A DNA stretch of 64,000 nt from an uncultured Gammaproteobacteria bacterium (GCA_964408485.1 CAYOZJ010000001.1:28366-92365), one strand, 5' to 3'. Counted from the stretch's first letter, positions 24,259 to 52,200 are shown. The notes: generated by a model from the letters alone, not told the origin. Translations and numbers: made by a program.

Positions 24259-24369
24259 ATACTCATGATATATATCTGAAATTGAGGTGTCAACAAAGTG
24301 AATGTAGTACGTATTAGGTAGTATGTTTTACGCAATAAGATACTTTATTTATACAAAACTTTATACATA

Positions 24370-26164: not shown

Positions 26165-26173
26165 TTGAAATTT

Positions 26174-26740
26174 TTATGGGTTATTTTTTGTGTAGTATAC
26201 GCCTGAGGTACATGCACTATCTCCACCTGCAAACGAAGACGTTGAGTCTGTATCTGCTGAATTTTCAAGACATGCAGCAAGAGTATAGGTAGTACCTGTT
26301 GTATCGTAGTAATAACTTCCTACATGGTAATACGTATTACCCAGTGGGTCGCAGGGAATTTTCTGCATATAGGTTGACCCTGAGTAGGTAAAACTAGATG
26401 GAGTAGGGCAGGCAGCACTATTGAGCCTATTTGTCCCACCTTCTGGAGGATAAGTACCAGTATCAGATCTGTATAACTCAAGCGCCGATTGGATTTGTCT
26501 AACGTCAGATTTTCTTTGTGCATCTCTTGCACGCTGTCTAATACCAATAAAATTGGTCATAAGAAGCGTTGAAAGAATACCAATGATCGCAATAACAATA
26601 AGAAGTTCAATAAGAGTAAAGCCAGCGTTGCTGGAAGTTCCAAATCCCAATTTCCAAGAAACAATTAAATTCCAATACCTCAAATTCCACATTGTTTGTA
26701 TCTTGTTTCTTGTTTCTTGTTTCTTGTTCATACAGATCAA
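26174..26740 (-). CDS. type IV major pilin-like protein (paralog 1)
   Basis: NAGFTLIELLIVIAIIGIL followed by ARD..RKSD..QIQSALELYRSDTGTYP, the T4a pilin / GspG-like fold signature. 45-aa leader. Confidence 0.8.
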   Translation of the reverse strand: MICMNKKQETRNKIQTMWNLRYWNLIVSWKLGFGTSSNAGFTLIELLIVIAIIGILSTLLMTNFIGIRQRARDAQRKSDVRQIQSALELYRSDTGTYPPEGGTNRLNSAACPTPSSFTYSGSTYMQKIPCDPLGNTYYHVGSYYYDTTGTTYTLAACLENSADTDSTSSFAGGDSACTSGVYYTKNNP

Positions 26741-26772
26741 TGGTAAATGGTAAATAATAAATCGTCAATGGG

Positions 26773-27416
26773 CTAGGGTGTTGTGTTAGGACTACTAACA
26801 CCATAGTTGCAAGGGTGGTGTTTGCCTGACGCTCCACAATCAACTGCTGCTGGAACGTTACCACATGTGCAGTACGTGAGACTTTCCGGATTATTAATAC
26901 AATTAGAGACCGTGGCTTTGCAAGTTTGTGTGTCATTTGGTCCTTGTTCAATTGACGTATAGAGATAGTATGACTGAGGAGATCCTCCTGGGGCATAGTA
27001 CACATACGTTCTACTAGAATCCGGATCTTTCGGCACAAGATCCATGTATGGCGACCAACCGCCTGATGCTCCCCATCCAAGACTGACACCATTAAAATCT
27101 GTTATGGTGTATGACGAACTGCTTTTTGGATAATTACCATGATCTTGATAATATTGCTCTAATACTCTTTGAATTTGTGCTAAATCAGACTTACGCTCGC
27201 CATCTCGCGCTTTTCTAAATTGCGCAAGGGGATTAAGGGCTGCAAGAGCAAAAACAGCAAGAATTGCTAAGATTCCAATAACGATAATCAATTCTATAAG
27301 AGTAAAGCCAGCGTTGCTGGAAGTTCCAAATCCCAATTTCCAAGAAACAATTAAATTCCAATACCTCAAATTCCAAATTGTTTGTATCTTGTTTCTTGTG
27401 TCTTGTGTCTTCGTCA
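26773..27416 (-). CDS. type IV major pilin-like protein (paralog 2)
   Basis: Leader plus N-terminal helix nearly identical at DNA level to paralog 1. C-terminal domain divergent and Cys-containing. Start placed at MTKTQDTRNK. Confidence 0.8.
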
Positions 27417-27418
27417 TA

Positions 27419-28213
27419 TTAATTAAATGCACAACTTTGACTGCAGTGCTGATCACAATAACAGTGGATATCTCCACCATAGTCTGTACACTGCGTCTTT
27501 GGTGCAATACTATTACATCTATTATCTCCTGTGCATCCATAAAACTGGTCACCAGGGCATGCAAGCGGCGTAGGAGTTGGTGTTATAGTCGGACCACCAC
27601 TGCCACCAGTAACAGTTGGAACTGTATCGCCTTGATTAATAACGTAACTGGCAACTTGGCTACAATCAACACTTCCTGAAATAGTACAGTAATTATAGTT
27701 ATTGGTTCTATACCCATTTGGCACACATGATGTTCGCTGTGCAAGAGGACAAGCATTACTTGGGACAGACGAACTCCGCAGGGCTGAGTACAAGACGTTC
27801 CATTGAGGACAGCTACTCGTTGAGTCAGGCTCATATAAGTAACACTTATCCGAATCACTGCCACAATCAGGATCCTGAGGAACTTTTTCCATATACACAT
27901 GATTATGTACTTTCCAGATCACCCCAAAGGTCAAAGAAGTTGGGTAACATCCAGTATCATTAAAGTAGCTATCAAGTGCCCTTTGAATTTGTCCCAAATC
28001 ATGCTCTCTCTTTCCATCATTTGCTTTATTGTATTGAGCAAGGGGATTAAACGTAGTAATCAGTCCAACAAGAAGAATTCCTAAAATAGCCAAAACAACA
28101 ACTAGCTCAATAAGAGTAAAACCTGATTGATAATGAAACCAACTATACGACTGAGAAAGATTCTTCAAAAACCAAGAATTCTTACTGCGTATTTCCATAA
28201 AAAATCTCCCCAT
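27419..28213 (-). CDS. type IV pilin-like protein with Cys-rich C-terminal domain (paralog 3)
   Basis: QSGFTLIELVVVLAILGIL plus NDGKREHDLGQIQRALDSYFNDTGCYP. About 20 Cys in the C-terminal 120 aa. The start overlaps the pilD 3' end. Confidence 0.8.
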   Translation of the reverse strand: MGRFFMEIRSKNSWFLKNLSQSYSWFHYQSGFTLIELVVVLAILGILLVGLITTFNPLAQYNKANDGKREHDLGQIQRALDSYFNDTGCYPTSLTFGVIWKVHNHVYMEKVPQDPDCGSDSDKCYLYEPDSTSSCPQWNVLYSALRSSSVPSNACPLAQRTSCVPNGYRTNNYNYCTISGSVDCSQVASYVINQGDTVPTVTGGSGGPTITPTPTPLACPGDQFYGCTGDNRCNSIAPKTQCTDYGGDIHCYCDQHCSQSCAFN

Positions 28214-28935
28214 ATTAGTGCTAGTAATGCTCCGAGAAAAAGGAAAGGTCCAAAAGCAATTGTGCTTCCTTTAAATTTCTTTTTCCCTTCTAAAATGAGT
28301 ATGACGCCGCATATACCACCTGTCAAGAAAGCTATATAGTATGCAACAACAATATATGGAAATCCAAGAAGAAATCCTAAAATTGCAACAAGTTTTACAT
28401 CTCCAAACCCCATCCCCCTGCCTTTAGAAAAAAGAAAAATAAGAAAAAGCGGTAAACTAGCCATAATAGCTACAACTAATCGCAAAGGAATCGTTGTGGG
28501 ATCGACAAGGAAAACAGCACACACAACAAGAATTCCAAACACAATAAGCAATGCATCCGACAAGATATGATACTTGATATCCATAATCGCAAGAGCAATC
28601 CCTAGAGAAAACAGTAACGCACTAATTGAATACATACCGAGATGAACCATATCGGTAGGCCACTGAAAAAGAAAAATCCCAATAAAAGCGATGCCAGTGA
28701 GAAGTTCTATGAGAGGGTATTGAAAAGAAAGCTTTTTATGACAATACCTACATTTTCCTCTCAGGAAGGCAAAGGACACAATTGGAATGAGATCAAACGC
28801 AGAAAGAGTATGATGACAAAAATCACAATGTGACCGACCAAAAAGTACTGATTTATTTGCAGGTATTCTATCAATCAAAACATTAAGAAACGAACCCATA
28901 CATAATCCAAAAATAAATAAAAAAAATATTGCCAT
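28165..28935 (-). CDS. pilD: prepilin peptidase (A24 family)
   Basis: N-terminal CxxC...CxxC zinc-binding cytoplasmic domain and polytopic membrane domain (GMGFGDVKL region). Confidence 0.9.
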   Translation of the reverse strand: MAIFFLFIFGLCMGSFLNVLIDRIPANKSVLFGRSHCDFCHHTLSAFDLIPIVSFAFLRGKCRYCHKKLSFQYPLIELLTGIAFIGIFLFQWPTDMVHLGMYSISALLFSLGIALAIMDIKYHILSDALLIVFGILVVCAVFLVDPTTIPLRLVVAIMASLPLFLIFLFSKGRGMGFGDVKLVAILGFLLGFPYIVVAYYIAFLTGGICGVILILEGKKKFKGSTIAFGPFLFLGALLALIWGDFLWKYAVRILGF

Positions 28936-28998
28936 AAAACAACCCTCACCCTTGTATTCCCTCTCCCAAAAGGAGAGGGGGCTTTGTCACGTTACCCA

Positions 28999-30153
28999 TT
29001 ATGCTACCCAATAATTAAGACTATGCATCACAAGAAAAAGTCCTTGTAATAGTAAGCTTATGTAGAGATATGGAAAAGTAATTGTTTCATATTTTTTTTC
29101 ATATGACATAATCGATAAACATACAAATAAAGGAAAAATAATAACCAAATATCTTGTGTATGACATAAAACTACCACCCAAGACGGGCAACAATCCAAAG
29201 CAAAGACTATAAACAAAATATACTGCAGACACTCTTTTTCTCATAAAGAAAAGGGATACAACAAAGGAGAAAAAAAACAGTCTATCAAGCAGGGAATCAG
29301 TAAATCCATGAATATGCAATGGAAAAGTAAACAATGCCTTAAGAAAAAAGAGAGGATTAAAAAGAGAAAAAAATGAATAATGAGAAACAAAATTTTGCTG
29401 TGCGCTAAACTGTGCAAACAAGCTTCCCGCTGTAATATAATAGATGATCATTGCAAGAATAAGCCCAAAAATGGGAAGAAAAAGAAAGAGTGTCTTTTTT
29501 TGTAATACTGTTTTCCCAATAACATGCATTTCGTCATAAAAAGAATGACGAGAATATTCAAGAATATAGGAAAAAAAGAAAGGAATAAGTATCGCAACTC
29601 CAATCAAACGCGTCAACGGAAGGAAGAATGCAACAAGAGATGCTCTGACAAGTTTTTTTTCTTGGAGAAAAAGAAAGAATAAAATAACAAGCAGGAAAAA
29701 CAGACTTTCTGTGTAAATAAGAGAGAAATAAAAACTTGTTGGAAAAGCAAGCAGCAGCAACAGGCTTCTTTTTGCAATTTTTTCGTTGTATTGATTCTTA
29801 ATCAAGAGATAAAACAAGTAAAAGCCGATACAAGAGAAAACATTTGCAAGTACCATCCCTGCAACAAAACTATTTCTTACTATCAACGTTGTGAGAAATA
29901 TAATAAAAGGCAAAAGAGGAGAGAATGCATTAGATTCATCATTTTTATGATATCCTTTCTCGCTTATATAAAGATAGTGCTGTGCATCCCATGTTTTATA
30001 TGAAGTGACAAGTGAAATTTGTTCGCGTATTGGATACGTAAAATTTGCAAAATATGTTGGTGCATTAAATGGTAAAAGAGAAAAACAAAGAAAAATAAAA
30101 ACAACAATACAAATTTTTACTGACAGAATAATAAAAATTATATCTCGTTTCAT
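28999..30153 (-). CDS. polytopic membrane protein, putative GT-C-fold glycosyltransferase
   Basis: About 11 predicted TM segments and a WDAQHYLYISEKGY motif in the first extracytoplasmic loop, reminiscent of GT-C mannosyltransferases. Functional assignment is inferential. Confidence 0.45.
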   Translation of the reverse strand: MKRDIIFIILSVKICIVVFIFLCFSLLPFNAPTYFANFTYPIREQISLVTSYKTWDAQHYLYISEKGYHKNDESNAFSPLLPFIIFLTTLIVRNSFVAGMVLANVFSCIGFYLFYLLIKNQYNEKIAKRSLLLLLAFPTSFYFSLIYTESLFFLLVILFFLFLQEKKLVRASLVAFFLPLTRLIGVAILIPFFFSYILEYSRHSFYDEMHVIGKTVLQKKTLFLFLPIFGLILAMIIYYITAGSLFAQFSAQQNFVSHYSFFSLFNPLFFLKALFTFPLHIHGFTDSLLDRLFFFSFVVSLFFMRKRVSAVYFVYSLCFGLLPVLGGSFMSYTRYLVIIFPLFVCLSIMSYEKKYETITFPYLYISLLLQGLFLVMHSLNYWVA

Positions 30154-30162
30154 ACAATAGGT

Positions 30163-32196
30163 TTATTTACTTGATACTCCAAGCGTATCTTTTGACGCTG
30201 ACAATGCCTTTTGAAAGTCTTTGCGATAGAGTTGGGTATAGGCGATACTTACCTCACTTGCTCTTTTTTTATCTTTAAAACAATTCAGATACATAGTATA
30301 TAAGAGAAAGTATGGTGTTTCTTGATACTGGTTGAGTGCTAGTGATTGAGAAAGATTATCTGCTGCATAGCCACATTTTCCAGCAATTCCAGAATATAAA
30401 ACTCCCAACGCGCTATATGCTTTATCATTATTCGGCTCAATATCGCGGGCTTTTTTATAGAAAGAAAGCGCGCTATCTGTATCTTGATAGCGTGTATAGA
30501 TAAAGGTTCCAGTAGCAATAAGTGAATTACTATACGCATTGGGGATTTCCGCAATTGTTAGGCTATGAGCAACAGGATTTTTTCTTTCTTCAATTGTTGG
30601 AGCATGAAGCGTTGACCAAATAGAACCAACTTGCATTTCGTAACTTTTTTTGTCGGGGAGACGATCTACATCTTGATACATTTCAAAAACAAGTCCGAAA
30701 GGTACCCATATAAGTTTTTCGCCTGTTTTGGGTTGAAATTGAGTTGTTGAAAAAATTCGCCGTGTGCTACTCATCGAACGGACTATCTTTATTAGTGCTT
30801 CTGTTCTATTTTTCGAGCTAACTCCTTTAAGACCATCTGCAATACTATTGTGCGTTACAGGTGTTGCCCCTATATTATAAAGGAGAATGTCTGGCCGGTC
30901 ATGAAGCGCGTAATGCACATACCATGTATTAAAAATTTGTGTATCCCCAGATATAAGAAGTACAGCATTACGCGGCAATGGATCGAGAAAGTCTTTCGCG
31001 TAGGTATCGCCAATCATAAGGGATGCAAGATTTGTCTTAGGGGTATTATAGACAAAAAGCATGAGCGGAATGAAAAGAAAAAGACAGGTAAAAAGAACTT
31101 CATAATGACGTTTGGGTAAAAAGCTTGCAAGACGCACAGTAAATACATAAAGGCCAATTCCAAAAGGAATAAGAAAAATCACCGTTGAAAGTAAGGTAAA
31201 TCGTTCGTATGCACCAATAATAAAACTGCTTGTTAAAGGAAATCCTGCATACATCAAAAAAACTGGACCAGAAAGCAACCACGCAAGAAATAGTGACGTG
31301 AAGAGTATTTTATCCTTTTTGAAAATGTGCCAAAACCCAAGAAAAGTAAGTACTATCGTTGGAATTGTTAACTGAAATAAAAGATACTGTACATAAAGCC
31401 ATAAGGTAACAAGGCGTTGCGCAAAGGAAGGCGTATCAAAAATACCAGCTTGAAAGGTACCATAATCTTTCCGGAGAATTAAATGAAAAAAGGAGGGAAT
31501 ATCATGAACTGAATCCCAATTAATAATTGGGTTATGGGCAGATGCAATAAAAATATATAAGAAAGGTGTTAATCCAAGAACAAATGATAAAAGCAAAAGA
31601 AGAATCAATAACATATTCTTTTTTATCTGAAGAAATAATTGTTTCCCAATTAATAGAAAAAGTGATGGAACGATAAGAATAATTGTTGAATGATGCGTAG
31701 AGGCAAGTCCGAGGCAAAAAAAGAAAAGATACAATACGGGTCCTTTTTTACTTTGACGAAAAAGAAGCGCCAAAAGAAATAGCACAAGCGCAAAGAATGT
31801 ATTTAACATAAATACTTCAGCAACTTCCGCATAAAACCAATAGAGAAAAGAGAATCCAAGAATGAGTGATGCAACAACACTGTTTAATGAATTTTTTGTA
31901 AGTTGCTTGGTAAAAAGATAAAAACATACAACGCCACCTGCTCCCGCAAATGCAGAAATTAACCCAACGGCAAATGCAGGAGAAATACGAGCAAGAATGG
32001 AATGAGTTAGTAAAAATCCTAGAAAGGTGAATAACGGATATCCTGAAGGGTGAGCAACTCCTCCAACGCTTGCTGCTGTTACTAAGTCGCCAACATCTCC
32101 TCCATAAATACTTCTCGAGAGATGACTAACGTAAAGCAGCAAAAATCCACTAAACAAAAATGTGGGCAGGATAATTTTCTTAACTAAAGAGAGCAT
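30163..32196 (-). CDS. DUF2723/TMEM260-like GT-C membrane protein with C-terminal TPR repeats
   Basis: N-terminal polytopic domain with GGDVGDL...HPSGYPLF loop, then a soluble C-terminal TPR region (YKKARDIEPNNDKAYSALGVLY...). Confidence 0.55.
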   Translation of the reverse strand: MLSLVKKIILPTFLFSGFLLLYVSHLSRSIYGGDVGDLVTAASVGGVAHPSGYPLFTFLGFLLTHSILARISPAFAVGLISAFAGAGGVVCFYLFTKQLTKNSLNSVVASLILGFSFLYWFYAEVAEVFMLNTFFALVLFLLALLFRQSKKGPVLYLFFFCLGLASTHHSTIILIVPSLFLLIGKQLFLQIKKNMLLILLLLLSFVLGLTPFLYIFIASAHNPIINWDSVHDIPSFFHLILRKDYGTFQAGIFDTPSFAQRLVTLWLYVQYLLFQLTIPTIVLTFLGFWHIFKKDKILFTSLFLAWLLSGPVFLMYAGFPLTSSFIIGAYERFTLLSTVIFLIPFGIGLYVFTVRLASFLPKRHYEVLFTCLFLFIPLMLFVYNTPKTNLASLMIGDTYAKDFLDPLPRNAVLLISGDTQIFNTWYVHYALHDRPDILLYNIGATPVTHNSIADGLKGVSSKNRTEALIKIVRSMSSTRRIFSTTQFQPKTGEKLIWVPFGLVFEMYQDVDRLPDKKSYEMQVGSIWSTLHAPTIEERKNPVAHSLTIAEIPNAYSNSLIATGTFIYTRYQDTDSALSFYKKARDIEPNNDKAYSALGVLYSGIAGKCGYAADNLSQSLALNQYQETPYFLLYTMYLNCFKDKKRASEVSIAYTQLYRKDFQKALSASKDTLGVSSK

Positions 32197-32202
32197 GAGA
32201 GC

Positions 32203-32763
32203 CTATTGCGAGCACCAATAGCAGGCAGTTGATGTTGGATTACAATCTCCAGTTGGTGAGTGTGGCGAACCATCTCTATTAAATTTAGCATTTGGATCCG
32301 ACCTTTGAGCTTTTGATTGTGGTTGGAAGCAGGCGGTAATATCGGTATCTGTTCCACTGACAATGATACTAGTTAATACACTCGTTACTGTCGTGAAGGC
32401 AGCCTTAATCTCTCCATCTGACACAAGACTACTCAAGCAAGTTACCAAATCAGGATTAAGAGACAATGACGTTGGATTATTATTGCCATTACACCCATTA
32501 TGCCATGGCATACTGTTATGAGTTGTGTAGTAGCGAATATTTGCATCAATAAATTCAACCGCAGTATTTTTAGTGTTCGCATCATTTGCTTTCTTAAGCT
32601 GCTCGAATGGATCAATAGTTGCAACAAGCGCTGCAGCCAAAACACCTAAAATACCAATAACAACAAGGAGTTCGATAAGGGTAAAACCCTTTTGTGAAGA
32701 AATATGAAAACTCCTTAGGAGTTTGGACAGTTTTTTCATGAATCTATACTTTAAGTTAAACAT
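32203..32763 (-). CDS. type IV pilin-like protein
   Basis: KGFTLIELLVVIGILGVLAAALVATI class III signal and N-terminal helix. Start may be the second Met (MKKLSKLL). Confidence 0.75.
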   Translation of the reverse strand: MFNLKYRFMKKLSKLLRSFHISSQKGFTLIELLVVIGILGVLAAALVATIDPFEQLKKANDANTKNTAVEFIDANIRYYTTHNSMPWHNGCNGNNNPTSLSLNPDLVTCLSSLVSDGEIKAAFTTVTSVLTSIIVSGTDTDITACFQPQSKAQRSDPNAKFNRDGSPHSPTGDCNPTSTACYWCSQ

Positions 32764-32885
32764 ACTTTTTTTAACCTTGTCAAGCCCCGTGTTTAGTCTG
32801 TCAATCCCACCACGTAATTACTCTCTTACCTTTCTCTCGCTCCTTTTTGATTTTCTTTTATTTTTAAGAGTAAAAAATAAGTATA

Positions 32886-33397
32886 TGCGTCACCATGATA
32901 CACTTTTTACATATAATAAAAGCAGAGAAAGCAGTTCACCTAACCAACAAGGTCCTCCTTCCACAAATGAAAAGCAAAAACTCCACCATCTCATGAATAG
33001 ATCTCAAACACCACTGCTAGAAGTTACTACGGTTTTTCCTTTTGACTTGTTTCCTGACACGATTGTTATTGATGCAACCAAAGTACATATTATTGATAGG
33101 GAATTTTTCTTCACTGAAGAGATTCACAGTATCCCTATTAAAAATATCGTTGATATTTATGTCGATACAGGACCATTTTTTGCAACTCTTCGAATACTTC
33201 CTCAATTGATATTTCAAAACCAAATTACACAAATTCCAAAACTATGGAAATCAGATGCGATGAAAGCAAGAGATGTCATCCAAGGACTTATTCTTGCAAC
33301 AAAAGAAAATATTAATGTGACAAATCTGCCTGATGAGGTAGATACAGATCAACTGCAGCACGACTTACAATCACTGGGACGACCTCAGCCTCATTGA
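32886..33397 (+). CDS. hypothetical protein (about 170 aa), only plus-strand gene inside the pilus locus
   Basis: ATG at 32886. The ORF-track 5' extension overlaps the pilin on the opposite strand and was discarded. No family recognised. Confidence 0.35.
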
Positions 33398-34593
33398 ATA
33401 CTTGAAGTAAGGTTATAAATTGGAGTAATGATTGAAATAATCAGAAAAGATACGCCAATACCCAACACGATCATAATAAATGGTTCCATTGCCGTTGTTA
33501 ATGTTTTGACTGTCCCATCAACTTCACGCTCAAAGTACTCACTGACTTTAAGGAGCGATTCATCTAATTTTCCTGTTTGCTCGCCAATTTTTACCATTTG
33601 GACAAGAATGGGAGGAAAAATATCAAATGCATTCATAGCGTCCCCAATAGTAACGCCTTTTTCAACGCGCTTGGAAATCTCCTGAATTGCACTTCGATAG
33701 ATAACATTTCCTGTCGTATCAGCTGATTCATTTAATGACTGGACAACAAGCGTCCCTGCACTTATAAGAAGACCAAATGTACGGGTAAATTCAGCCATAA
33801 TGGTCTTTTTGATGAGATTACCAAAAACAGGAAGACGAAGCTTAATTCCATCGGTAATCAGTTTTCCTGAATCAGTTTTTCGCCATCTGTTATATGCAAC
33901 GCCAAACAAAATAACCATGCCCAAGATTAACGGCCAAAATCCAATGGTGAAATCAGAAACACTTACCATAAACTGTGTCGTGGGAGGCAAGGGAATATTG
34001 AGATTTTGGTACAAAACAGTTAATTGAGGAATAACAAAAATCATCATAACAAACATAACAACAACCATAAGGACAACAACAATAACAGGATAGGTAAGAG
34101 CAGACTTAATTGTCGCTTGCAATTTTTGTTGCTTCTCCAAGTTATCAGCAAGCCGCAAAAGTACTTTATCTAAAAATCCAGAAGATTCTGCAGCACGAAT
34201 AAGAGAAATGTAAATCGGATTAAAAATCTTCGGATACTTGGCAATTGCATCGGCAAATGTTTTTCCTTCTTGGACATCTCCTATAAGGCTATTTACCACT
34301 TGCTTCATCGCAGGATTCTGAACTTGTTCTTTTAAAATATTGAGCGCCTGCATAAGTGTTAGACCGGAGGAGAGAATGGATGACAATTGTCTTGTAAATA
34401 AAACCAAATCTTCTGTTGAAGATTTTTGAAAAAGTTGGGAAAAAGAAAAACTATTCGTTGCAATTTGCCTCACAGAAAGTGGCAACATACCTTTCCCTCT
34501 TAGAAATCCCACAGCCTCATTAACATCTCTTGCTTCCAAAACACCCTGGGTTATTTTGCCATCCTTGCTGGTCGCGCGGTACGTTATTTTCAT
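33391..34593 (-). CDS. pilC: type IV pilus platform protein PilC (GspF family)
   Basis: Two GspF-type repeats and three TM segments. Confidence 0.9.
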   Translation of the reverse strand: MKITYRATSKDGKITQGVLEARDVNEAVGFLRGKGMLPLSVRQIATNSFSFSQLFQKSSTEDLVLFTRQLSSILSSGLTLMQALNILKEQVQNPAMKQVVNSLIGDVQEGKTFADAIAKYPKIFNPIYISLIRAAESSGFLDKVLLRLADNLEKQQKLQATIKSALTYPVIVVVLMVVVMFVMMIFVIPQLTVLYQNLNIPLPPTTQFMVSVSDFTIGFWPLILGMVILFGVAYNRWRKTDSGKLITDGIKLRLPVFGNLIKKTIMAEFTRTFGLLISAGTLVVQSLNESADTTGNVIYRSAIQEISKRVEKGVTIGDAMNAFDIFPPILVQMVKIGEQTGKLDESLLKVSEYFEREVDGTVKTLTTAMEPFIMIVLGIGVSFLIISIITPIYNLTSSIQ

Positions 34594-34595
34594 GA

Positions 34596-35675
34596 TTATC
34601 CAACCATTCGAAGTAATTCGTCAGGATGCAAGCTGTAGGATTTTGCTGTATCAAGACTAATTGCTCCTGACAAGACGAGTTGAGAAAGAGAATTGTCTAA
34701 AGCAATCATGCCAACATCTTGTGACGTTTGAATAATTGAGTCTATAAGATGCGTTTTGCCATCTCGTACGTTACTTGCAACTGCTGGTGTCCCAACAAGT
34801 ATCTCAACTGCGGGAATTCGTCCTCCAGAGATTTGAGGAATAAGCCTTTGCGAAATAATGCCCTTTAACGTAAAGGAAAGTTGTGTACGAATTTGAGACT
34901 GTTGGTGCTCTGGAAAACTATCAATTATTCTATCAATTGACTGTGATGCAGAATTTGTATGCAAGGTAGATAAAACCAAATGACCAGTCTCAGCAATTGT
35001 CATTGCAGCAGCCATTGTGTCCGGATCTCGCATTTCTCCAATTAAGACAACGTCTGGATCTTCACGAAGAGCACTTCTGAGAGCCATTGTCCATGAATGA
35101 GTATCTGTCTTCATTTCGCGCTGAGAAATGATACTTTTCCCATTTGGATAAACATATTCAATTGGGTCTTCAATAGTTAATATATGACTACTTCTCGTCA
35201 TATTAATTTCATTAATCATTGAGGCAAGCGTTGTTGATTTTCCTTGTCCTGTTGGGCCAGTTACCAAAATAAATCCTTGACGTAGATTAGCGAAGTTATG
35301 ACAAATTCTTGGTAAATGTAAATCTTCGATTGTTTTGATTGTTTTGGGCAAAAAACGGAAAGCAGCACATAATTGACCTCTTTGGTAATATGCATTCACA
35401 CGAAATCTTCCTAGGTCTCCATAAATTCCTCCACCATATGGCATGGAAAAATCAAGCTCTTTATTTGCTACTAATAAATCTTTTTGCTCAGCAGAGAGCA
35501 AAGTAAAAAGCATACTCGTCACACTTTCCGAACTTAACGCTGCAATCGATGCAACATAGGAAAGGGCACCATCAACACGAATTGCTGGAGGAAGTCCAGG
35601 CAATAAATGCAAATCTGATGCATTACTTTTAACGACTAATTCTAATAATTGTTGTAAATCCATAAGTTCGATCAT
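34596..35675 (-). CDS. pilT: twitching-motility (retraction) ATPase PilT
   Basis: Walker A GPTGQGKSTT, Asp box and His box of PilT/GspE ATPases. Length of about 360 aa is typical of PilT. Confidence 0.9.
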   Translation of the reverse strand: MIELMDLQQLLELVVKSNASDLHLLPGLPPAIRVDGALSYVASIAALSSESVTSMLFTLLSAEQKDLLVANKELDFSMPYGGGIYGDLGRFRVNAYYQRGQLCAAFRFLPKTIKTIEDLHLPRICHNFANLRQGFILVTGPTGQGKSTTLASMINEINMTRSSHILTIEDPIEYVYPNGKSIISQREMKTDTHSWTMALRSALREDPDVVLIGEMRDPDTMAAAMTIAETGHLVLSTLHTNSASQSIDRIIDSFPEHQQSQIRTQLSFTLKGIISQRLIPQISGGRIPAVEILVGTPAVASNVRDGKTHLIDSIIQTSQDVGMIALDNSLSQLVLSGAISLDTAKSYSLHPDELLRMVG

Positions 35676-35752
35676 CGCCTATCGCAAATAGGTAATCGAT
35701 ATAATTTATTAAAACACAAACTATTACCGATAAGCCATATGCGATATGCCCA

Positions 35753-37594
35753 TCATTCCTGCGCAACGCGCAAAACCTCTTCAATTGTTGTTACTCCCGC
35801 GAGTGCTTTAAGATATCCATCTTGTTTCATTGTTATCATTCCTTCTGCAGTTGCTTGCTTTACGATTGTTTCCGCATCTGCTCGCTGCAAAATAAGATGA
35901 GCAATTTTTTCGGTTACTGTAAGGACTTCAAAAATACCAACTCGGCCAATGTATCCTGAGTCACCGCATTGATTACATCCTTTTCCTTTATAGAGCTTTA
36001 CCTCGCCAGTTGGCATAATCGGTCCCAGATTTGTTTTAATCTCCTCAACAAGCTGAGCAGCTGGAATATAGGATTCCTTACAGGTATCACAAATTTTTCT
36101 AACAATTCTTTGTCCCATAACGGCAGTAATTGTTGAAGCAAGTAAAAATGTCTCTGCGCCTAAATCAATAAGACGAGGGAGAGCACCCGATGCATCGGAG
36201 GTATGAAGGGTGGAGAAGACCAAATGGCCAGTGAGTGCCGCTTGGATAGCCAAATCCGTTGTCTCACCGTCTCGGATTTCTCCAACAAGAATAATATTTG
36301 GATCCTGACGAAGAAAACTACGTAATCCGTCAGCAAACGTTAATCCGACAGCTGGATTAATTTGTACTTGATTTACTCCCTGTATTTCATATTCGACCGG
36401 ATCCTCAAGTGACACAATATTTACGCGCGTTGTATTAAGTTTTGCAAGCACAGCATACAGCGTCGTTGTTTTTCCTGATCCCGTAGGTCCGCAAACAAGA
36501 ATAATGCCATGGGGCCGAAGAATTGCTGTCTCCAACGCCTTAAGAGACAATCCGTTAAGTCCGAGTTCTGGCAAAGTTGGGATACCACCTGATTTTCGAA
36601 GAAGTCTCATCACAATTTTTTCACCGTGTACTGTTGGAAGGACAGAAATACGAAGATCAACTTCTTGATTACCAACTTTAAAATTAAACCTGCCGTCTTG
36701 TGGCATGCGATGCTCATCGATTTTCATTTCCGACAAAACCTTAATACGGGAAATAACTGCTTCTTGTACTGTTTTAGGAAGACTCAACCGGTCATACAAA
36801 ATACCATCAATACGGTATCTCACCCGTACCCTGTCATCCATTGGTTCTATGTGCACATCAGATGCGCGGGAATTTACTGCATACTCAAGAATCGTTGCCA
36901 CAATTTTTGCAATTGGCGCTTCTTTAATAATTTGACCAATCTGGCTACTATCAACTGTTTTAGTTGTATTTTCTTGCTTTAGTGCTTCTGTTTCTTTAAC
37001 AGCTCTCCCAACTTCTCCAACTAATTCTTGTCTGTACTGCGCATTAATTGCATTCTTCACGTCTGTTGGTGTTGAGGCAAAAGTTTTTATGGTAAGTCCT
37101 GTTTTTTGTTGAATAAAGGAAAGTGCATCCAAATCTGCTGGGTTACTCATAGCAACCGAGAGAATTTTCGTCTTATCATCGTAAAGAAATGGAATCAGCT
37201 GAAACCGCTCAACAACGGCACGCGGAATAAAACTTAATGCTTCTGGAGAAAAGGATGCTGTTGCTAAATTAATGTAGGGGACACCAAGCATTTGCGCTTT
37301 GGCCTCAGCAATTTTTGCCTCATCCACTATATGCATTTCATCTAATACTTCGTCCGTTGATCTATTCGTTGTTGCGCTTTTTAATTTTATATCGTCATAT
37401 TGCTCTTTGGTAAGCAAATTTTCTCTGAATAATAAATCAGTAACACTCTCTCCAATAGTAGCTGAGACAGGAGGAGCAGGTTGTACCACTACTGAAGGAT
37501 TAAGAACAGGAGCAGCACCTCCGGCAGAAGAGGGAACAACTGGCACATTTGTTCCAACAGGTTGTGCCTGCGGAACGACTTGCTGATCGGGCAT
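35753..37594 (-). CDS. pilB: type IV pilus assembly ATPase PilB (GspE family)
   Basis: Walker A GPTGSGKTTT, N-terminal GspE_N domain, tetracysteine zinc motif CDTC...CNQC. Confidence 0.9.
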   Translation of the reverse strand: MPDQQVVPQAQPVGTNVPVVPSSAGGAAPVLNPSVVVQPAPPVSATIGESVTDLLFRENLLTKEQYDDIKLKSATTNRSTDEVLDEMHIVDEAKIAEAKAQMLGVPYINLATASFSPEALSFIPRAVVERFQLIPFLYDDKTKILSVAMSNPADLDALSFIQQKTGLTIKTFASTPTDVKNAINAQYRQELVGEVGRAVKETEALKQENTTKTVDSSQIGQIIKEAPIAKIVATILEYAVNSRASDVHIEPMDDRVRVRYRIDGILYDRLSLPKTVQEAVISRIKVLSEMKIDEHRMPQDGRFNFKVGNQEVDLRISVLPTVHGEKIVMRLLRKSGGIPTLPELGLNGLSLKALETAILRPHGIILVCGPTGSGKTTTLYAVLAKLNTTRVNIVSLEDPVEYEIQGVNQVQINPAVGLTFADGLRSFLRQDPNIILVGEIRDGETTDLAIQAALTGHLVFSTLHTSDASGALPRLIDLGAETFLLASTITAVMGQRIVRKICDTCKESYIPAAQLVEEIKTNLGPIMPTGEVKLYKGKGCNQCGDSGYIGRVGIFEVLTVTEKIAHLILQRADAETIVKQATAEGMITMKQDGYLKALAGVTTIEEVLRVAQE

Positions 37595-46106: not shown

Positions 46107-46312
46107 TCTCATCAATTGTAAGAATCTAATGAAGAAAAGGTAAGTACTTGACAGAATTTCCATTGTTGTATCATAATTAAACTCCAGAGACATATGAAAT
46201 ACTCTGGTTTTTTTGAAGCTAAGAAGCTCTTTATTATTAATAAGACGAAGTATCAAACGCCCACACAGGCGTTTTTTTTTGACATTTTTGCAGCCTACCA
46301 GCTGCATTTTTA

Positions 46313-47428
46313 TTGCGTATGAGAAGTGCCAACGAAGTACCAACATTGCTATCCAACTTTGCAGTTAAACGCACCACAGCAAACTCTGAGTCATCTTACG
46401 CAGTACGCCGTTTCCCTCGTCTTGGAGCTATAAGAAGAGGGGGAGGGGGAGAAGATAGACAACCTAATATTAAAGTTCCTCGACCTGATATGGAAAAAAC
46501 GCTTACGCTGTTTCAGCAAAGTGCGGAAAAAACAGGACTGGAAATTGGCCAACATGACCCTGCGGTAAAACTTCTCCGTGTTACAGGAATCGGATTTGGA
46601 GACTCACGCGAAAATCCTAATATGCATCCAGCAGAAGCGCTCATGCAAATCAACGATGGGACAGGAAACTCTCTGAGATTTCGTCTCATTAACCAGGGAT
46701 CATTCACTGACGGAGAAGGACGAGTATGGGACGGAAGAGTTGTCGCATTTGTCGAGCAAGCAAAAATTCATGGACAAAATATCGACTTAACTCATGAAAT
46801 GACTCACGAGGGTTTTGTTTTTCTTACTAAAGGTATGCCTGATATTCTTCAACAAGTAAAAAATGGGGATCAACCTACAGCAACAATCCGCCAAGAAACA
46901 CCAGACGCGGTTTGTTTTATTGACGGTCATCACACATTTATTGGAAGACATGACATGGGATGTTACTGTAAAGAAGAACGAGAAGCATCCCTTGCCGTTA
47001 TTCACGCTACAGGCGGGGTGAGCAGTCTTATGCCAGGCACAGGAAATGGCAATGGAAGAAGAGCACAAGACATGCAAATTGCCGCACGCTATAGCCTTGC
47101 AGAAAACGACAGCTCTCTTGAATTACTTCCTTCCTATCCTGAGGTCTATAACAGAATGGGCAAGAAGGGCGATGATAGGAATAGGACACTAAAAATTTCA
47201 ACCCTCCTTCTTGAACATCTTTTCCAAATAAAAAATGTTCCAAATATCACAACGTTAACTGAAAGCAAAGCAAAGCAAAATGTTTGGAATGAATTTGGTG
47301 CACAACACATGGTAACTGGACAGTCTCTCCATGTAACTCCTGTTGACCACCCTGACTCACGATACAAACAGCAAGTTTTGGGTTACTCACGAGCAGACGA
47401 AGTACCTTTCCCGCTTCAGCGCAGATAA
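46313..47428 (+). CDS. hypothetical protein with HExxH motif (putative metallo-hydrolase)
   Basis: LTHEMTHEGF contains HEMTH, an HExxH zinc-binding motif. No other family signature. Part of the integrase-adjacent cargo. Start may be a downstream Met. Confidence 0.45.
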   Translation: MRMRSANEVPTLLSNFAVKRTTANSESSYAVRRFPRLGAIRRGGGGEDRQPNIKVPRPDMEKTLTLFQQSAEKTGLEIGQHDPAVKLLRVTGIGFGDSRENPNMHPAEALMQINDGTGNSLRFRLINQGSFTDGEGRVWDGRVVAFVEQAKIHGQNIDLTHEMTHEGFVFLTKGMPDILQQVKNGDQPTATIRQETPDAVCFIDGHHTFIGRHDMGCYCKEEREASLAVIHATGGVSSLMPGTGNGNGRRAQDMQIAARYSLAENDSSLELLPSYPEVYNRMGKKGDDRNRTLKISTLLLEHLFQIKNVPNITTLTESKAKQNVWNEFGAQHMVTGQSLHVTPVDHPDSRYKQQVLGYSRADEVPFPLQRR

Positions 47429-47471
47429 AAGAATCTTGTCAATAAGTGGGTTTTCCCATATACTGTCTAAT

Positions 47472-48020
47472 ATGCCTCTTACCAAATCAGATATTGCCAA
47501 GGAGTATCAACCTTTCATAAGTGTCCAGGATTATTCTCCCAAGCAAAAAATTGAAGGCGTAGAAGTTGTTGAAATAAAAGTCTTTACTGGGGAAGACGGC
47601 GACTTTTCCGAATTAGCACGACTCACGCCAAGTGGAAAATTAGAAGGATTTCCTGATTTTCAAGTGCGACAAATGAGTAGATCCAAAGTTATGCCAAAAT
47701 CTGTCAAGGCATGGCATTTTCATTTAAAGCAAGATGAAATCCAGACAGTACTTCCTGAAGATAAATTAATTATTGGTCTGTGGGACCTGAGGGAAAAATC
47801 TAAGACAAAGAGTATGACCATGAGGCTAGCATTTGGGGGAGGAAAGGCTCACTGGCTTTATATCCCTAAAGGAGTTGCACACGGCTACATGAATCCATTC
47901 GAAACACCAGCAACAGTACTCTATATGATGAACGAGCAATTTGATATAAAAAATCCAGATGAAATGCGCATGCCCTGGGACGCAATGGGTAAAGAATTTT
48001 GGGAATTAGCCAAAGAATAG
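47472..48020 (+). CDS. RmlC-like cupin (dTDP-4-dehydrorhamnose 3,5-epimerase family)
   Basis: WHFHLKQDE...IPKGVAHGY resembles RmlC catalytic His and Tyr motifs. Start placed at MPLTKSD. Confidence 0.55.
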   Translation: MPLTKSDIAKEYQPFISVQDYSPKQKIEGVEVVEIKVFTGEDGDFSELARLTPSGKLEGFPDFQVRQMSRSKVMPKSVKAWHFHLKQDEIQTVLPEDKLIIGLWDLREKSKTKSMTMRLAFGGGKAHWLYIPKGVAHGYMNPFETPATVLYMMNEQFDIKNPDEMRMPWDAMGKEFWELAKE

Positions 48021-48085
48021 CCTCAAAGCGTAAGAATTTGTCTTATAGTATTGACATTTCTGAAAGAAATGTTTATAATGCTCAT

Positions 48086-48964
48086 ATGAATCGAGTACCC
48101 GAAGGCTACGTGCCAGGTAATTATTCTCAAACTCCTGATGTAAGTAAAGTTCCACTAGTCGGAGGAGCGGTAAATGTACTATCTCAGGTGAATATGACAA
48201 GAAAGCGAGCATTGGCAGCTTCCCGGGCAGTTGCACAAACACCAGGAAGAGCAATCGAGGCAGGAAGAAACGCTGCACAACATGCAAGAACAGATATAAG
48301 CAGAGGCTTAACTTCTAAAACAAAAGCTATTGAAACAGGAATAGACCAGGCGAGTCAAGCACTTGCTGAACGCGCAGAAAGAGCAAAAGCCGATCTAGGT
48401 AATAGTATTACCTCTACGTTAAAGGCAGCTGAAGCTGCAATCAACACAAGCAACCAAAGACTTGACACTACTGGACAGAGGCTTGCCCAACGATTTGAAA
48501 CTACAATGACAAATCTAGATACCAGACTTAGTCATGTAAAGGCTGCTATTGAAAGCGTAGAAACGAAGATCGATGACGCGATGGGATTGAAAAAAACTCA
48601 AGCATTTTCAGAACCAAAATTACCTACACCCCCGACACACAGACAAACCAAAACTATTAATAGGCGCGAATATACTCCAGATGAAAACGCAGGACAAGAT
48701 GAAAGACCTAAAGTAAGAAATACTACAGAACCGAGCTATGTGGATCTGCGATCTCACGACTTAGGTCAAAATACTCTACGCGAGACTAGAAAACCTACTG
48801 ACCCTAATAGTCGTTCCAATGATCTTGAGCTAGGTGCAGATGGTAAACCATGGGATGTTGCCCTACGTGAGAGACTTGGCGTACCAAAACCAGGAACCTA
48901 TATTTCAAGTCCTGAGCAAAGAAAAGCAGAACTGCAAGAAGTCTTTAGACGTTACCATTTATAA
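48086..48964 (+). CDS. hypothetical helical-repeat protein
   Basis: Long amphipathic, coiled-coil-like repeats (ALAERAERAKADLGNSITSTLKAAEAA...). No family recognised. Confidence 0.45.
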   Translation: MNRVPEGYVPGNYSQTPDVSKVPLVGGAVNVLSQVNMTRKRALAASRAVAQTPGRAIEAGRNAAQHARTDISRGLTSKTKAIETGIDQASQALAERAERAKADLGNSITSTLKAAEAAINTSNQRLDTTGQRLAQRFETTMTNLDTRLSHVKAAIESVETKIDDAMGLKKTQAFSEPKLPTPPTHRQTKTINRREYTPDENAGQDERPKVRNTTEPSYVDLRSHDLGQNTLRETRKPTDPNSRSNDLELGADGKPWDVALRERLGVPKPGTYISSPEQRKAELQEVFRRYHL

Positions 48965-48965
48965 T

Positions 48966-49988
48966 TTATTTCCCCTTATTACCACTGTGAAATTGCTTGT
49001 GAATGTCTCTTAACTGCTTATTTGTGATATGCGTGTAAATTTGGGTTGTGGCAATGTTTTTATGCCCAAGCATTTCTTGTACACTTCTCAAATCCGCCCC
49101 GTTAGACAATAAGTCTGTTGCAAAACTATGTCGCAAGGTATGGACCGTTGCATCAACAGGTATCCGGGCTATCCGCACATACTTTTTTACCATTCGCTCT
49201 ACACTTCGTGGCGTTAGTCGCATTTTCTCTCCACCATTCTCGGGCATTTCCTTACCAGAGTAGCGAATAAAAAGAGGCTTATACACGTCTTCTCTAGCAG
49301 CCATATATTTCTCGATCCAATCTGCAGCTCTATCGGAAATAAAGACCACACGCGCTCGTCCGCCTTTTCCAATAACACCAAACTCGCGTCTTTCTATATT
49401 TATCTGCTGATGATTTAACTTACATAGCTCAGACACACGAAGACCAGTCGAGAAGAGGAGTTCTAGCATTGCTCTATCTCGAATTCCCTCAATTTTGGAC
49501 GTATCGATACTCGTTACCATTCTGTCTATATGATCTCGCTCTAAAAATTTAAGGCTTCTAGATTCTGTTTTGGGTAAATCAATTTTTGTCGGCTCAAGTG
49601 TCTTGACATCATTTTTTAAAAGAAATTTCAAAAAAGACCGAAGACAAATAATGTAGTAATTTTGGGTAACGCGTTTCATCGTCATCCCGTGCAAGTCCAT
49701 TTTGGATGCTAAAAATACTCTAAATCTTCTTACTGTCTGCACGTCTAAATCTTCTATTGTTTTATGTGTCTGCGTTGTCCCAAACCATTCACCAAATACT
49801 TCTAAGTAGTGCCTATAATCTCTAATAGTAAGTTTGGAGCAATTTCGCTCAACAGATAAGTAGTCTAAGAAATCATTTATATGAAGGAGTAGGGAAGGGG
49901 GCATATTATTTTCAGGGGTAGGGATAGGCAAATGTGTTTCTTCGGGAATTACTGAAACAACTGGTGCTAAAACATCTTGGGCAGTCAT
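48966..49988 (-). CDS. tyrosine recombinase (XerC/XerD / phage-integrase family)
   Basis: C-terminal catalytic R...HxxR...Y motifs (HTLRHSFATDLL...LGHKNIATTQIYTHI) and N-terminal SAM-like core-binding domain. Cannot tell whether it is the chromosomal Xer or an element integrase. Confidence 0.85.
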   Translation of the reverse strand: MTAQDVLAPVVSVIPEETHLPIPTPENNMPPSLLLHINDFLDYLSVERNCSKLTIRDYRHYLEVFGEWFGTTQTHKTIEDLDVQTVRRFRVFLASKMDLHGMTMKRVTQNYYIICLRSFLKFLLKNDVKTLEPTKIDLPKTESRSLKFLERDHIDRMVTSIDTSKIEGIRDRAMLELLFSTGLRVSELCKLNHQQINIERREFGVIGKGGRARVVFISDRAADWIEKYMAAREDVYKPLFIRYSGKEMPENGGEKMRLTPRSVERMVKKYVRIARIPVDATVHTLRHSFATDLLSNGADLRSVQEMLGHKNIATTQIYTHITNKQLRDIHKQFHSGNKGK

Positions 49989-50065
49989 AGATATTGATGA
50001 TTTATAATTTATTATTTACCATTGACGAAAACTTTTATGGACATATTAATTAGAATATTTTGCGA

Positions 50066-50126
50066 CGTGAAAACTCATGTCGTAAAATGTAACAACCTCT
50101 TAACTTATTCTGCGACGTGAAAACTC
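50066..50126 (+). promoter_or_regulatory. two direct repeats ATTYTGCGACGTGAAAACTC (40-nt periodicity) in the divergent integrase / ORF50148 spacer
   Basis: Copies at 50066-50086 and 50104-50126. Related GTGCGACGTT at 51501-51510 and CGTGAAAAGT / CGTGAAACCT at 51995-52030. Confidence 0.5.
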
Positions 50127-50147
50127 TTTTGTCAACTCTTCTACTTA

Positions 50148-51005
50148 GTGTACAATTGTTCTATGAATTTAAGGAAAGCAATTGTTCAAGTTCAGCAAAT
50201 TGGTCTTGAGCATGGATTTACCATAGTCATTGTTGGAGGCGCGCTAGTGCGACTTATTGGTAAAAAAACAACAATTACAAAAATAGATGCAGACAAAAAA
50301 AATATTTTTCTTGAAGGAGCAGAAAATCCGACAACCAAAAGGGAAGACGCTAAAACAACAGTAGATATAGATTGTATTGCTTTCTCAAATAACCATGATC
50401 CTTTTGAAAAAGAAGTAAGAAAAGACTTCGAAAATCTGCAGAAAGATCTAAAAAAGCTACAACAATCAGACTTTCCTGCTATATCTCTAGAACCAGTCCT
50501 ATATCATCCATATTTCCCCAAACCAAATAATCTTCTTCAATTTGTCTCATCTGTTGAATCCTACCATGACCATGACTATTTTTTCCGTTTGGGAAGCATT
50601 AAACAGGATGTTAAGAAATCATCTCTTTCATTCTGGACATACACATTTGATAATTCAGACCAACAAATTACAAGCCTTAGTCCTTTGGCAATTCAACTAC
50701 GGTATAAAATCCGCGGATTCTCTATAAAACCTAAAGATAAAGAAAAAATATTTGGAAATAAATCAGCATTTGCTCAATTTACTGCAGGTTTTAATACAAA
50801 AACCAAGGACGCTTATAAAAATGACTATGCTGAGTGGGATAAATTTGCAGAAAGCGTGAGCAATGCCAAACAACCATCTCTACGACTCAAGAAAGCCCTC
50901 TGGGACGCGTATTGGAACACAATTGGCACATACCTCGCTCATGGTACAGGATTTGTTGGGAAATTGCTTTTGCCTCTTGGCAATACCTTCTTTGCGGGAA
51001 AATGA
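50148..51005 (+). CDS. hypothetical protein (285 aa)
   Basis: Intact ORF with no recognisable motifs. Confidence 0.4.
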   Translation: MYNCSMNLRKAIVQVQQIGLEHGFTIVIVGGALVRLIGKKTTITKIDADKKNIFLEGAENPTTKREDAKTTVDIDCIAFSNNHDPFEKEVRKDFENLQKDLKKLQQSDFPAISLEPVLYHPYFPKPNNLLQFVSSVESYHDHDYFFRLGSIKQDVKKSSLSFWTYTFDNSDQQITSLSPLAIQLRYKIRGFSIKPKDKEKIFGNKSAFAQFTAGFNTKTKDAYKNDYAEWDKFAESVSNAKQPSLRLKKALWDAYWNTIGTYLAHGTGFVGKLLLPLGNTFFAGK

Positions 51006-51015
51006 TTGTTACCTT

Positions 51016-51195
51016 TTACCCACGCTCTGTATGAACCGAAGTTTGTTCTCTTGTTCTCTCATCGTGTTCTTTCGCAACTTCATCTGCTTTACTAAATTCT
51101 GCATACTTATTGCTTTTTCTTTCACCACCTTGACCAGGTTTTACATTTTTCCTAGCGTCGCGTTGTGCTTTTTGAAAATTTGACTTTGAAGCCAT
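51016..51195 (-). CDS. small basic hypothetical protein
   Basis: MASKSNFQKAQRDARKNVKPGQGGERK.... Start taken at the internal Met. Confidence 0.3.
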   Translation of the reverse strand: MASKSNFQKAQRDARKNVKPGQGGERKSNKYAEFSKADEVAKEHDERTREQTSVHTERG

Positions 51196-52200
51196 TTGAG
51201 AAAATATAAAATATTTGCAAACCCTTGTCAACAGAGAGTTAATTGTGCATTTATCATTTAATAAAAACTACAGCTTTAATGAAAAAAGTAAATTTACTTT
51301 ATAAACAAGCACTGTTTATAAAACTTTTAAGTCCTGTAGTAGGGGATAGGACAATTTTTAGACCTGTCAAAAAGAGAGAATATTAAGCCGAAGAATGAAA
51401 GGTGTAATGACAAATGTGTCGTTATTTCTACAAAGTAATAAGCAGTAATCAAACCTCCTCCCCAGGACTCCAGCCTGAGTGACGTCGTAAAAGTATTATT
51501 GTGCGACGTTATTACATGAGCTTCCCTTGGGTCTTTACGTGGTATTTTTTGTCTTTTAAGACAAAGGCATTTGTCTATAAGTAACTCTTTATGGTAGGGG
51601 TAATAGACCTCTTCTCTAAGAAGAGAACGATAAATTAATGAACAAGTGTTCGTCCCTTCATGTACCTATTCGTCCTAAGGCATCCTAGGCCACTACTTTC
51701 CCCGAAAGGCCTAAGCAGCATTACGATTTGGTTGCCAATTAAGGCTAAAGTCTCTAAATTAGCTTCAATCTGTAAGAAATATGAGAGCAACTATGATGGT
51801 TTAGATTGATTTATCGACCTAAACTTTCCATTTTAGCCTCGAAATGCGAATAGTCGTTCGACTTTTTTTCATTCATTTCAGTACAGACTGTATCAAGAAG
51901 GAGGTACTCTTTCACATCACAATATGAATATTCACGCTTGTGCTACCCGCATATACTCGCTTTATGGTGAAGCATATATGCTTTCTTGTTTAGAGGGCCG
52001 TGAAAAGTGAGGCTTTAAAACCCGTGAAACCTCTTGAGTTATCCACATTGAGCTTGTCGAAATGTCCTATAATTTTAGATATTTTATTATAGGTCTTATA
52101 GTTTATGTGTATCAAACTATATCATTTGAGGCTATTTTCCTAAAATACCCACTCTCCTCTTCCCTAGTTGATTAAGAAGAAATTTTTATTTTATTCGTAG

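Follow-up and report, generated by a model that had tools for sequence, protein, structure and literature searches.

A tyrosine recombinase gene of Candidatus Levybacteria and its candidate dif site: probably a chromosomal Xer/dif module rather than an integrated element

What is a gene for a tyrosine recombinase doing close to gyrA and folD, surrounded by genes that change from one relative to the next? The question is raised by a 64,000-nt stretch of DNA (GCA_964408485.1, CAYOZJ010000001.1:28366-92365; "the window" from here on), deposited as uncultured Gammaproteobacteria but derived from a genome of Candidatus Levybacteria (Patescibacteria, or candidate phyla radiation, CPR). An initial annotation took positions 46313-52200 to be an integrated element or a recombinase-regulated cassette, the recombinase at its centre and hypothetical cargo around it. 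I argue instead that the locus is probably the chromosome's own Xer/dif module for the resolution of chromosome dimers, placed within a zone of gene flux, and that no element has integrated there.

The argument is a comparative one. Scanning a single genome for each species gave 80 loci, nearly all labelled Levybacteria or Patescibacteria, and a scan of metagenomes for the DnaA-box-type arrangement described below gave 120 more, of which 93 contain enough downstream DNA. The present genome is represented by its 64 kb and the relatives by 20-kb loci, in which gene order was mapped by tblastn with the proteins of the window. The title of the present record is not unique: contigs with clear Levybacteria synteny go under the public titles "uncultured Gammaproteobacteria" or "Candidatus Eisenbacteria" (L002, L006, L010 and many whose names begin with CAY or CAZ; P0011, P0037), and these are probably taxonomic mislabels.

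There is no doubt that the gene encodes a tyrosine recombinase. Its product has both domains required, the tyrosine-recombinase catalytic domain (Phage_integrase, PF00589, 2.4e-42) and the N-terminal SAM-like core-binding domain (PF02899, 1.6e-12), and its translation contains GLRVSE, GKGGR, HTLRHS and LGH..IYTH, which resemble the context of the catalytic residues (by eye, with no reference alignment). The best NCBIfam families are XerD (250.5 bits), XerC (249.2) and XerA (217.5), and the closest solved structures are P. abyssi XerA (4a8e) and E. coli XerD (1a0p). I will call the gene xer. Its open reading frame (ORF) has 340 codons, and since orthologues are mostly 310-316 amino acids (aa) long, translation probably begins at Met29 (49904).

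The surroundings of xer are telling. The order o262-o256-yebC-DUF5656, gap, xer, gap, folD-gyrA-ppa is kept in nearly all 80 genome loci, across which the identity of Xer ranges from 59 to 82%, and the neighbours in the metagenome loci are alike. So widely shared a gene order marks xer, as judged by sequence comparison, as a core, syntenic and vertically inherited chromosomal gene and not the integrase of an element.

The rest of the proposed element fares no better. When synteny is compared, close relatives differ by gains and losses of single genes, not of the whole block. Two relatives whose Xer proteins are 86% and 92% identical to that of the window (L086 and L088) keep the backbone and differ gene by gene: one is without the 371-aa gene, both are without the 321-aa gene, and one has two extra genes, including one for a tetratricopeptide repeat (TPR) protein. 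No att-like repeats join the ends of the block at 46.3 kb and 52.2 kb, and searches of the cargo against Pfam, NCBIfam and PHROGs found no family concerned with replication, phage, transfer or mobility besides the recombinase, which is itself of Xer type, set in core synteny and 1.5 kb from a dif-like site.

What does survive is the impression of an accessory and variable neighbourhood, for the contents of the gaps differ among species. The interval between xer and folD ranges from 0.5 to 10 kb, that between the dif-like site and xer from 0.4 to 5.4 kb, and that between DUF5656 and the dif-like site is mostly 0.44-0.9 kb. Relatives carry in these gaps carbamoyl-phosphate synthase and other pyrimidine genes, an ATP-binding cassette (ABC) transporter, a trehalase-like enzyme and a transaldolase (all named from sequence), and one further gap protein occurs in 57 loci. 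The window has none of these and carries its own set, the G+C content of 46313-48964 being slightly raised (0.42, vs 0.385 for the window). The flanking genes are thus ordinary lineage-variable chromosomal genes, subject to piecemeal flux, and not one inserted element. As an aside, the genes between xer and folD read as carA, carB, pyrB, pyrC, pyrD, pyrE and pyrF in L004, L006, L009, L013, L031, L049, L055 and others, while the window genome and several others have no pyrimidine genes there.

If xer is a core gene, on what does it act? The answer likely lies in what had been described as about 1 kb of ORF-free DNA. It is true that 51232-52200 has no conserved ORF, but no other non-coding DNA in the neighbourhood is so well conserved. 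Compared with the other loci by blastn, it resolves into short islands of very high identity, the strongest of which is a 28-mer, ACGTCGCACAA-TAATAC-TTTTACGACGT as read in the orientation of xer. It is an imperfect palindrome of the form 11-6-11, its arms complementary at 9 of 11 positions, a size and arm geometry that fit a dif site (28-31 bp, with inverted arms of about 11 bp and a centre of 6-8 bp). The 28-mer occurs once in the window and, allowing up to 6 mismatches, once each in 67 of the 80 genome loci, always between DUF5656 and xer, 0.4-5.4 kb upstream of the latter and in constant orientation relative to it. Most of the loci that lack it lack the upstream DNA as well. It is found also in 72 of the 93 metagenome loci, including lineages whose Xer is just 52-61% identical. 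The site is intergenic amid flanking genes that vary among relatives, and information content drops sharply past its edges. The outer positions of the arms change symmetrically (ACGTCG..CGACGT, ATGTCG..CGACAT, ACTTCG..CGAAGT, GCGTCG..CGACGC), and the centre is asymmetric and near-invariant. These features match the hallmarks of dif as they have been listed (PMC2731167, PMC9765430), and the 28-mer is likely the dif site of this chromosome. The near identity of its arms suggests that a single recombinase acts on it.

Conservation continues, at a moderate level, on either side of the 28-mer (51440-51481 and 51510-51550), with a purine-rich GGAAAGAGAAAnTGATT upstream and, downstream, a small hairpin that covaries (AGGCT..AGCCT) and then GGGAGAAGTGG (alignment A4). 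Two other ideas about these islands were dropped. A likeness by eye of 51380-51710, minus strand, to RNase P RNA failed because the P4 helix cannot be paired and Rfam gives no match, and a small ORF fails because the conservation shows no codon periodicity.

Part of the 28-mer turns up in a second place, the promoter of xer. Paired direct repeats had been noted between xer and the gene divergent from it, and they are real: 21 nt each, 95% identical, at 50056-50076 and 50106-50126, sharing an exact 16-mer found nowhere else in the window. In the orientation of xer both hold ACGTCGCA[A/G]AAT, which is the left arm of dif plus the first base of its centre. The motif GTCGYANAWT has four occurrences in the 64 kb, three at the xer promoter and one within dif, and in 64 of 76 loci it is found immediately upstream of xer, where 0.005 would be expected per 300 nt. 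Its position is not arbitrary. The last six bases of the half-site, YANAAT, are placed 17-18 nt after a TTGACA-like box and serve as the -10 box of xer; in the window the promoter, found by a promoter scan, is TTGACA-17-CAGAAT (50135-50107, with the -35 box at 50130-50135). The suggestion that the repeats are operators related to the recombinase has therefore gained ground. The "related CGTGAAA motifs" that were mentioned along with them also exist, at 51998-52006 and 52022-52030, but belong to a separate conserved element, TTTTCACRG, taken up below.

In most relatives (e.g. L006, L013, L033, L051, L052) the ATG comes 5-8 nt past the -10 box, so close that the xer mRNA should be leaderless. 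In the window xer begins about 115-200 nt downstream of its promoter, a longer leader than the relatives have. The closest relative, L088, has only one copy of the half-site, so the two repeats appear to be a local duplication. When half-site and dif arm are compared genome by genome, they covary at position 2 (odds ratio 22, p=4e-6, uncorrected for phylogeny). The spacing of 5-8 nt is seen as well at the 285-aa and small basic genes (50107-50163, 51195-51231), which suggests that leaderless mRNAs are common in these genomes. Then there is L108, from a distant lineage with the same synteny and a Xer-type recombinase. It has a 28-bp 11-6-11 palindrome, ATCGAGTATAA-TATCCC-TTATGCTCGAT, that is unlike the Levybacteria 28-mer in sequence and lies across both the -10 box and the start codon of its Xer gene.

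Family assignment, synteny, the architecture and conservation of the site, the position of the half-sites and the covariation between sites lead me to propose the following. Xer monomers would occupy both 11-bp arms of the 28-bp site, two sister copies of the site would synapse, and strand exchange across the asymmetric 6-bp TAATAC centre would convert a chromosome dimer into monomers. The same Xer is predicted to bind the copies of the left half-site (AYGTCGYANAAT) as well. With the last six bases of the half-site acting as the -10 box (TTGACA-N17-..GTCG-YANAAT), excess Xer would block transcription of xer and so shut off its own synthesis. In this genome the operator would have been duplicated, giving the direct repeats, and the leader lengthened.

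Could the 28-mer and the half-sites have nothing to do with recombination, and be instead an RNA hairpin or the operators of some other, unrelated regulator that binds DNA? Covariation at the outer positions of a palindrome would suit a dimeric regulator or a stem as well, and the site does not coincide with a switch in strand bias. Isolated 12-nt half-sites, however, suit a monomeric recombinase better than a dimeric regulator. As for the hairpin, RNAalifold found around the 28-mer a 5-bp outer stem at -3.8 kcal/mol and no larger RNA structure; the stem is weak and the 16-nt "loop" near-invariant. Moreover, linkage of the site to xer holds in all lineages, and the different 11-6-11 site of L108 sits again on the xer gene. 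It would be surprising if this explanation proved right.

A second alternative gives the recombinase a more active part in the variability of its surroundings. The genes between dif and xer (in the window, the 285-aa and small basic genes) might have been inserted at dif by Xer itself, as a cassette or an IMEX (a mobile element that integrates with the help of Xer), leaving dif on one side and degenerate half-sites on the opposite one. The interval does vary in size and content among species and is flanked by dif and dif-like arms, with a degenerate dif-like stretch near 50030-50068 (by eye); in five loci the left arm occurs once more within it, as a 12-nt copy, and a full site at the xer promoter in L108 is consistent with a later separation. 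Nonetheless, the genes in the interval are metabolic or of no known role, with none for replication, phage or transfer, and multi-gene intervals are not split by dif-like sites. Sites of this kind are missing from xer-folD, the other variable interval. A half-site held at a fixed -10 position in nearly all species fits an operator better than a scar, and I regard the cassette as a poor bet.

Several observations weigh against an Xer/dif module. First, xer scores below the NCBIfam equivalog cut-offs of all three families (329.6 for XerD, 335.2 for XerC and 220 for XerA), so it must be counted a divergent branch. Second, the G+C content of the 28-mer, 0.39, is no lower than that of the genome, 0.385, where a dif site is expected to be lower. 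Third, the covariation of half-site and dif arm, which extends to position 7 (odds ratio 11, p=7e-4), is there too uncorrected for phylogeny. Finally, there is the matter of strand bias. The raw cumulative GC skew has a maximum at 46-50 kb, which could be taken for a terminus, but it tracks only gene orientation and was set aside. Four-fold degenerate sites, which separate the effect of strand from that of coding, give a skew to the left of dif of -0.23 for plus-strand genes (n=21) and +0.04 for minus-strand genes (n=19; p=6e-5). Minus-strand genes to the right show +0.07 (n=9), no different from those on the left (p=0.26). The sign is thus the same on both sides of dif, for 51 kb leftward and 12.5 kb rightward, limits beyond which a terminus may still lie, and 65 other genomes behave alike, with a strand term of +0.17 upstream and +0.09 downstream. 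As far as the DNA examined goes, the locus does not behave as a classical terminus, nor as a classical bidirectional origin. Over the whole 64 kb, four-fold sites are C-rich in plus-strand genes (-0.23) and neutral to G-rich in minus-strand genes; genes of at least 150 aa are split near-evenly between strands, 22 vs 28, so genes show little tendency to be co-oriented with the biased strand.

The absence of a switch takes on another light beside another conserved part of the region, a non-coding module between DUF5656 and dif whose cluster of DnaA boxes lies 250-650 bp from dif. It comprises tandem TGATATAGT-like repeats (52106-52124; 63 of 68 loci), an ATTATAGGAC element, a perfect DnaA box, TTATCCACA, at a fixed place (52039-52047, plus strand), and the two TTTTCACRG-type boxes at the positions given above (in 58 of 68 loci, with a spacing of mostly 22-23 bp); GAAAAAAATACGAA is found in 61 of 68. 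The perfect box is present in 42 of the 68 loci, compared with 9 boxes elsewhere in 1.34 Mb, and the module is kept in distant lineages as well. The conserved cluster of one perfect and two TTTTCACRG boxes is of the kind expected at oriC. An unrelated locus from the metagenome scan, L183, of an AT-rich organism, provides a point of reference for variants of the DnaA box in AT-rich genomes: its dnaA-dnaN intergenic region (4651-4906) contains TGTGGATAA and three copies each of TGTGGAAAA, TTTTCACAG and TTTTACACA, so TTTTCACAG does occur among the boxes of a region that usually holds oriC.

Closed genomes of Microgenomates have been reported to show a monotonic cumulative GC skew, for which either neighbouring origin and terminus or unidirectional replication has been proposed (Kadnikov et al. 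2020, PMC7143001). Taken together, the DnaA-box cluster, the unswitched bias and the published monotonic skew allow an origin and a terminus side by side: the module would be the chromosomal origin, replication would be largely unidirectional and so finish at its starting point, and dif-xer would mark the junction. This reading adds to the Xer/dif reading and does not replace it. The box at its fixed place, the spacing of the TTTTCACRG pair, the presence of the same type of box in a true dnaA-dnaN region and the persistence of the module in distant lineages all speak for it. But dnaA is absent from the window and, for all 80 loci, from the DNA within 10 kb; an AT-rich unwinding element is not clearly visible either, and the window does not have the large overall G/C strand disparity of the UBA1400 genomes. 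The evidence is local, moreover, with a 64-kb window standing in for whole-genome skew, and a position in the middle of a replichore would equally give 64 kb without a switch. I consider an adjacent origin and terminus rather unlikely. In a weaker version, the cluster may be a dif-linked site for titration of DnaA or for timing.

The order UBA1400, to which the published skews belong, is of the same superphylum, and there too the strand bias shows no change of sign where one is expected. The comparison goes only so far, in that UBA1400 is described by whole-genome skew with neither origin nor dif mapped (PMC7143001), while Levybacteria are described here by local evidence (64 kb and the 20-kb loci) and have a much weaker bias. 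A third search for homologues recovered Levybacteria alone and did not reach the UBA1400 genomes.

How does the proposed Xer/dif module compare with known systems? It shares with classical XerCD/dif the 11-6-11 geometry, a single-copy intergenic site and a catalytic domain of Xer type; it differs in its near-identical arms, in the linkage of site to gene and in having no detectable skew switch. Classical dif, moreover, reads GGTGCGCATAA-TGTATA-TTATGTTAAAT, from which the Levybacteria 28-mer differs in sequence. Linkage itself has precedents. In XerS/difSL and XerH/difH the recombination site is linked to the recombinase gene (PMC1914069, PMC2731167, PMC5357621), and autoregulation through a site in or near the promoter has been proposed for XerS (PMC1914069). 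As in the XerS/difSL of streptococci and lactococci, site and recombinase gene form one genetic module. But the Levybacteria enzyme resembles XerC/D/A, scoring 250 bits with the XerD model and 132 with that of XerS, the site measures 28 bp around a 6-bp centre where difSL has 31 bp and a centre of 11 bp, and the full site lies at a distance from xer, with a half-site alone on the promoter. The XerH/difH of Campylobacter and Helicobacter likewise combines one recombinase with a palindromic dif that is mostly gene-linked (PMC2731167); XerH is nevertheless distant (49 bits to 5jjv), and difH (..ATTGAAAACTATAATTTTCAAAT..) is unrelated in sequence. In archaea the substrate of XerA is a conserved dif of 28 bp (PMC5357621). 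P. abyssi XerA is the best PDB match to the Levybacteria protein, although the host here is bacterial and the score of 217.5 falls just under the family threshold. XerA/dif is independent of FtsK and tied more loosely to termination zones.

Within the literature searched, no paper turned up that joins Patescibacteria with dif or Xer, nor CPR with chromosome dimers or XerD. The 28-mer thus offers a concrete candidate dif for a large uncultivated bacterial lineage, one where a gene-linked dif is seen together with a Xer of canonical type, and the promoter suggests a simple autoregulatory design, open to test, in which the recombinase gene takes half a recombination site for its -10 box. If the origin were indeed adjacent, then the order DnaA-box module, dif, xer would constitute the juxtaposed origin and terminus that have been hypothesised yet never mapped for Microgenomates with monotonic skew. 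A DnaA-box cluster next to dif with no switch in bias makes the hypothesis of unidirectional replication in Microgenomates directly testable.

The features of the locus are collected in Table 1.

Table 1. Features of the xer-dif locus and its surroundings (positions count from the first letter of the window)
Feature	Position	Strand	Basis or remark
Two terminator-like hairpins ending the gyrA-folD unit	46255..46306	+	Sequence scan
371-aa protein, GTP cyclohydrolase II-like fold, lineage-restricted	46313..47428	+	Model and Foldseek to 4rl4, 2bz0
RmlC-like cupin	47343..48020	+	PF00908, 4.9e-10; present in L002, L003, L010, L086, L088
321-aa coiled-coil-like hypothetical protein	47999..48964	+	Weak coiled-coil-type matches
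xer, Xer-type tyrosine recombinase	48966..49988	-	Pfam and NCBIfam scores, synteny, orthologue lengths, structures
Second dif left half-site copy, ACGTCGCAAAAT (repeat 1)	50057..50068	-	Local 50-bp operator duplication
Inverted arm, ATGTCGTAAAA, like dif right arm	50077..50087	+	Between the two half-sites
dif left half-site copy, ACGTCGCAGAAT (repeat 2)	50107..50118	-	Overlaps -10 CAGAAT of xer promoter
285-aa hypothetical protein, probably 280 aa from 50163	50148..51005	+	29 homologues; promoter scan
Small basic protein	51016..51231	-	Annotated as 59 aa in same-organism contig
Candidate dif	51482..51509	- (xer orientation)	Conservation, uniqueness, geometry
Conserved hairpin unit, TTTAGATTG..CTAAA, TTTTAGCCTC	51798..51870	+	Followed by short hairpin and T-run
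Conserved non-coding module with DnaA boxes	51998..52124	-	Alignment of 54 loci; counts in 68 loci

The hairpin unit between the DnaA boxes and dif consists of AGCCTC/GAGGCT plus AAAA, a spacer of 8-10 nt and a TTTAG..CTAAA hairpin; it is followed in Levybacteria, on the opposite strand, by a short hairpin and a T-run. The unit occurs once in the window and in 4-6 copies in distant lineages (L136, L182, L108), and is possibly a small RNA, a terminator or a protein-binding array.

The remaining neighbours are of less consequence. The two stacked terminators described at the left end of the block are confirmed as hairpins at 46255-46274 and 46289-46306, and the TTGACA-N18-CATAAT promoter has its match at 46148-46177. 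The 371-aa protein had been called an HExxH protein, and the motif is indeed present; it is not conserved in 6 homologues, however, so a metalloprotease was rejected. Its structural model (predicted local distance difference test, pLDDT, 74) matches GTP cyclohydrolase II (E=7e-5, probability 1.0). Only 7 homologues were found among 5.8 billion clusters, and the conserved positions include the motifs RQET..CF.DGH..GC.C.EER, GNGNG and EHLF. The cupin was correctly recognised from the outset; relatives are annotated at 182 aa, so its start is probably at 47472. The 321-aa gene, whose weak matches are the sole basis for the "helical-repeat" description, is confined to the organism of the window, being absent from all relatives but a same-organism contig (L001).

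Divergent from xer is the 285-aa ORF, which is present as annotated except that it more likely starts at the later codon given in Table 1; its promoter is TTGTCA-16-TACAAT (50129-50156). Searches of PDB and viral structures with a confident model of the protein (pLDDT 89, predicted template modelling score 0.87) gave no significant match, and weak nucleotidyltransferase-like matches together with a GG...DID motif hint at a nucleotidyltransferase fold. The small basic protein is present too, more likely with 59 aa, its gene probably leaderless with a start at 51195.

Farther afield, Rfam at gathering and permissive thresholds, applied to the window and 11 relatives, matched two tRNAs and nothing else. 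From 20989 to 37594, on the minus strand, runs a long block of genes resembling a type IV pilus cluster, with pilin-like N-termini, ATPases and a prepilin-peptidase-like ORF, as judged from the translations only.

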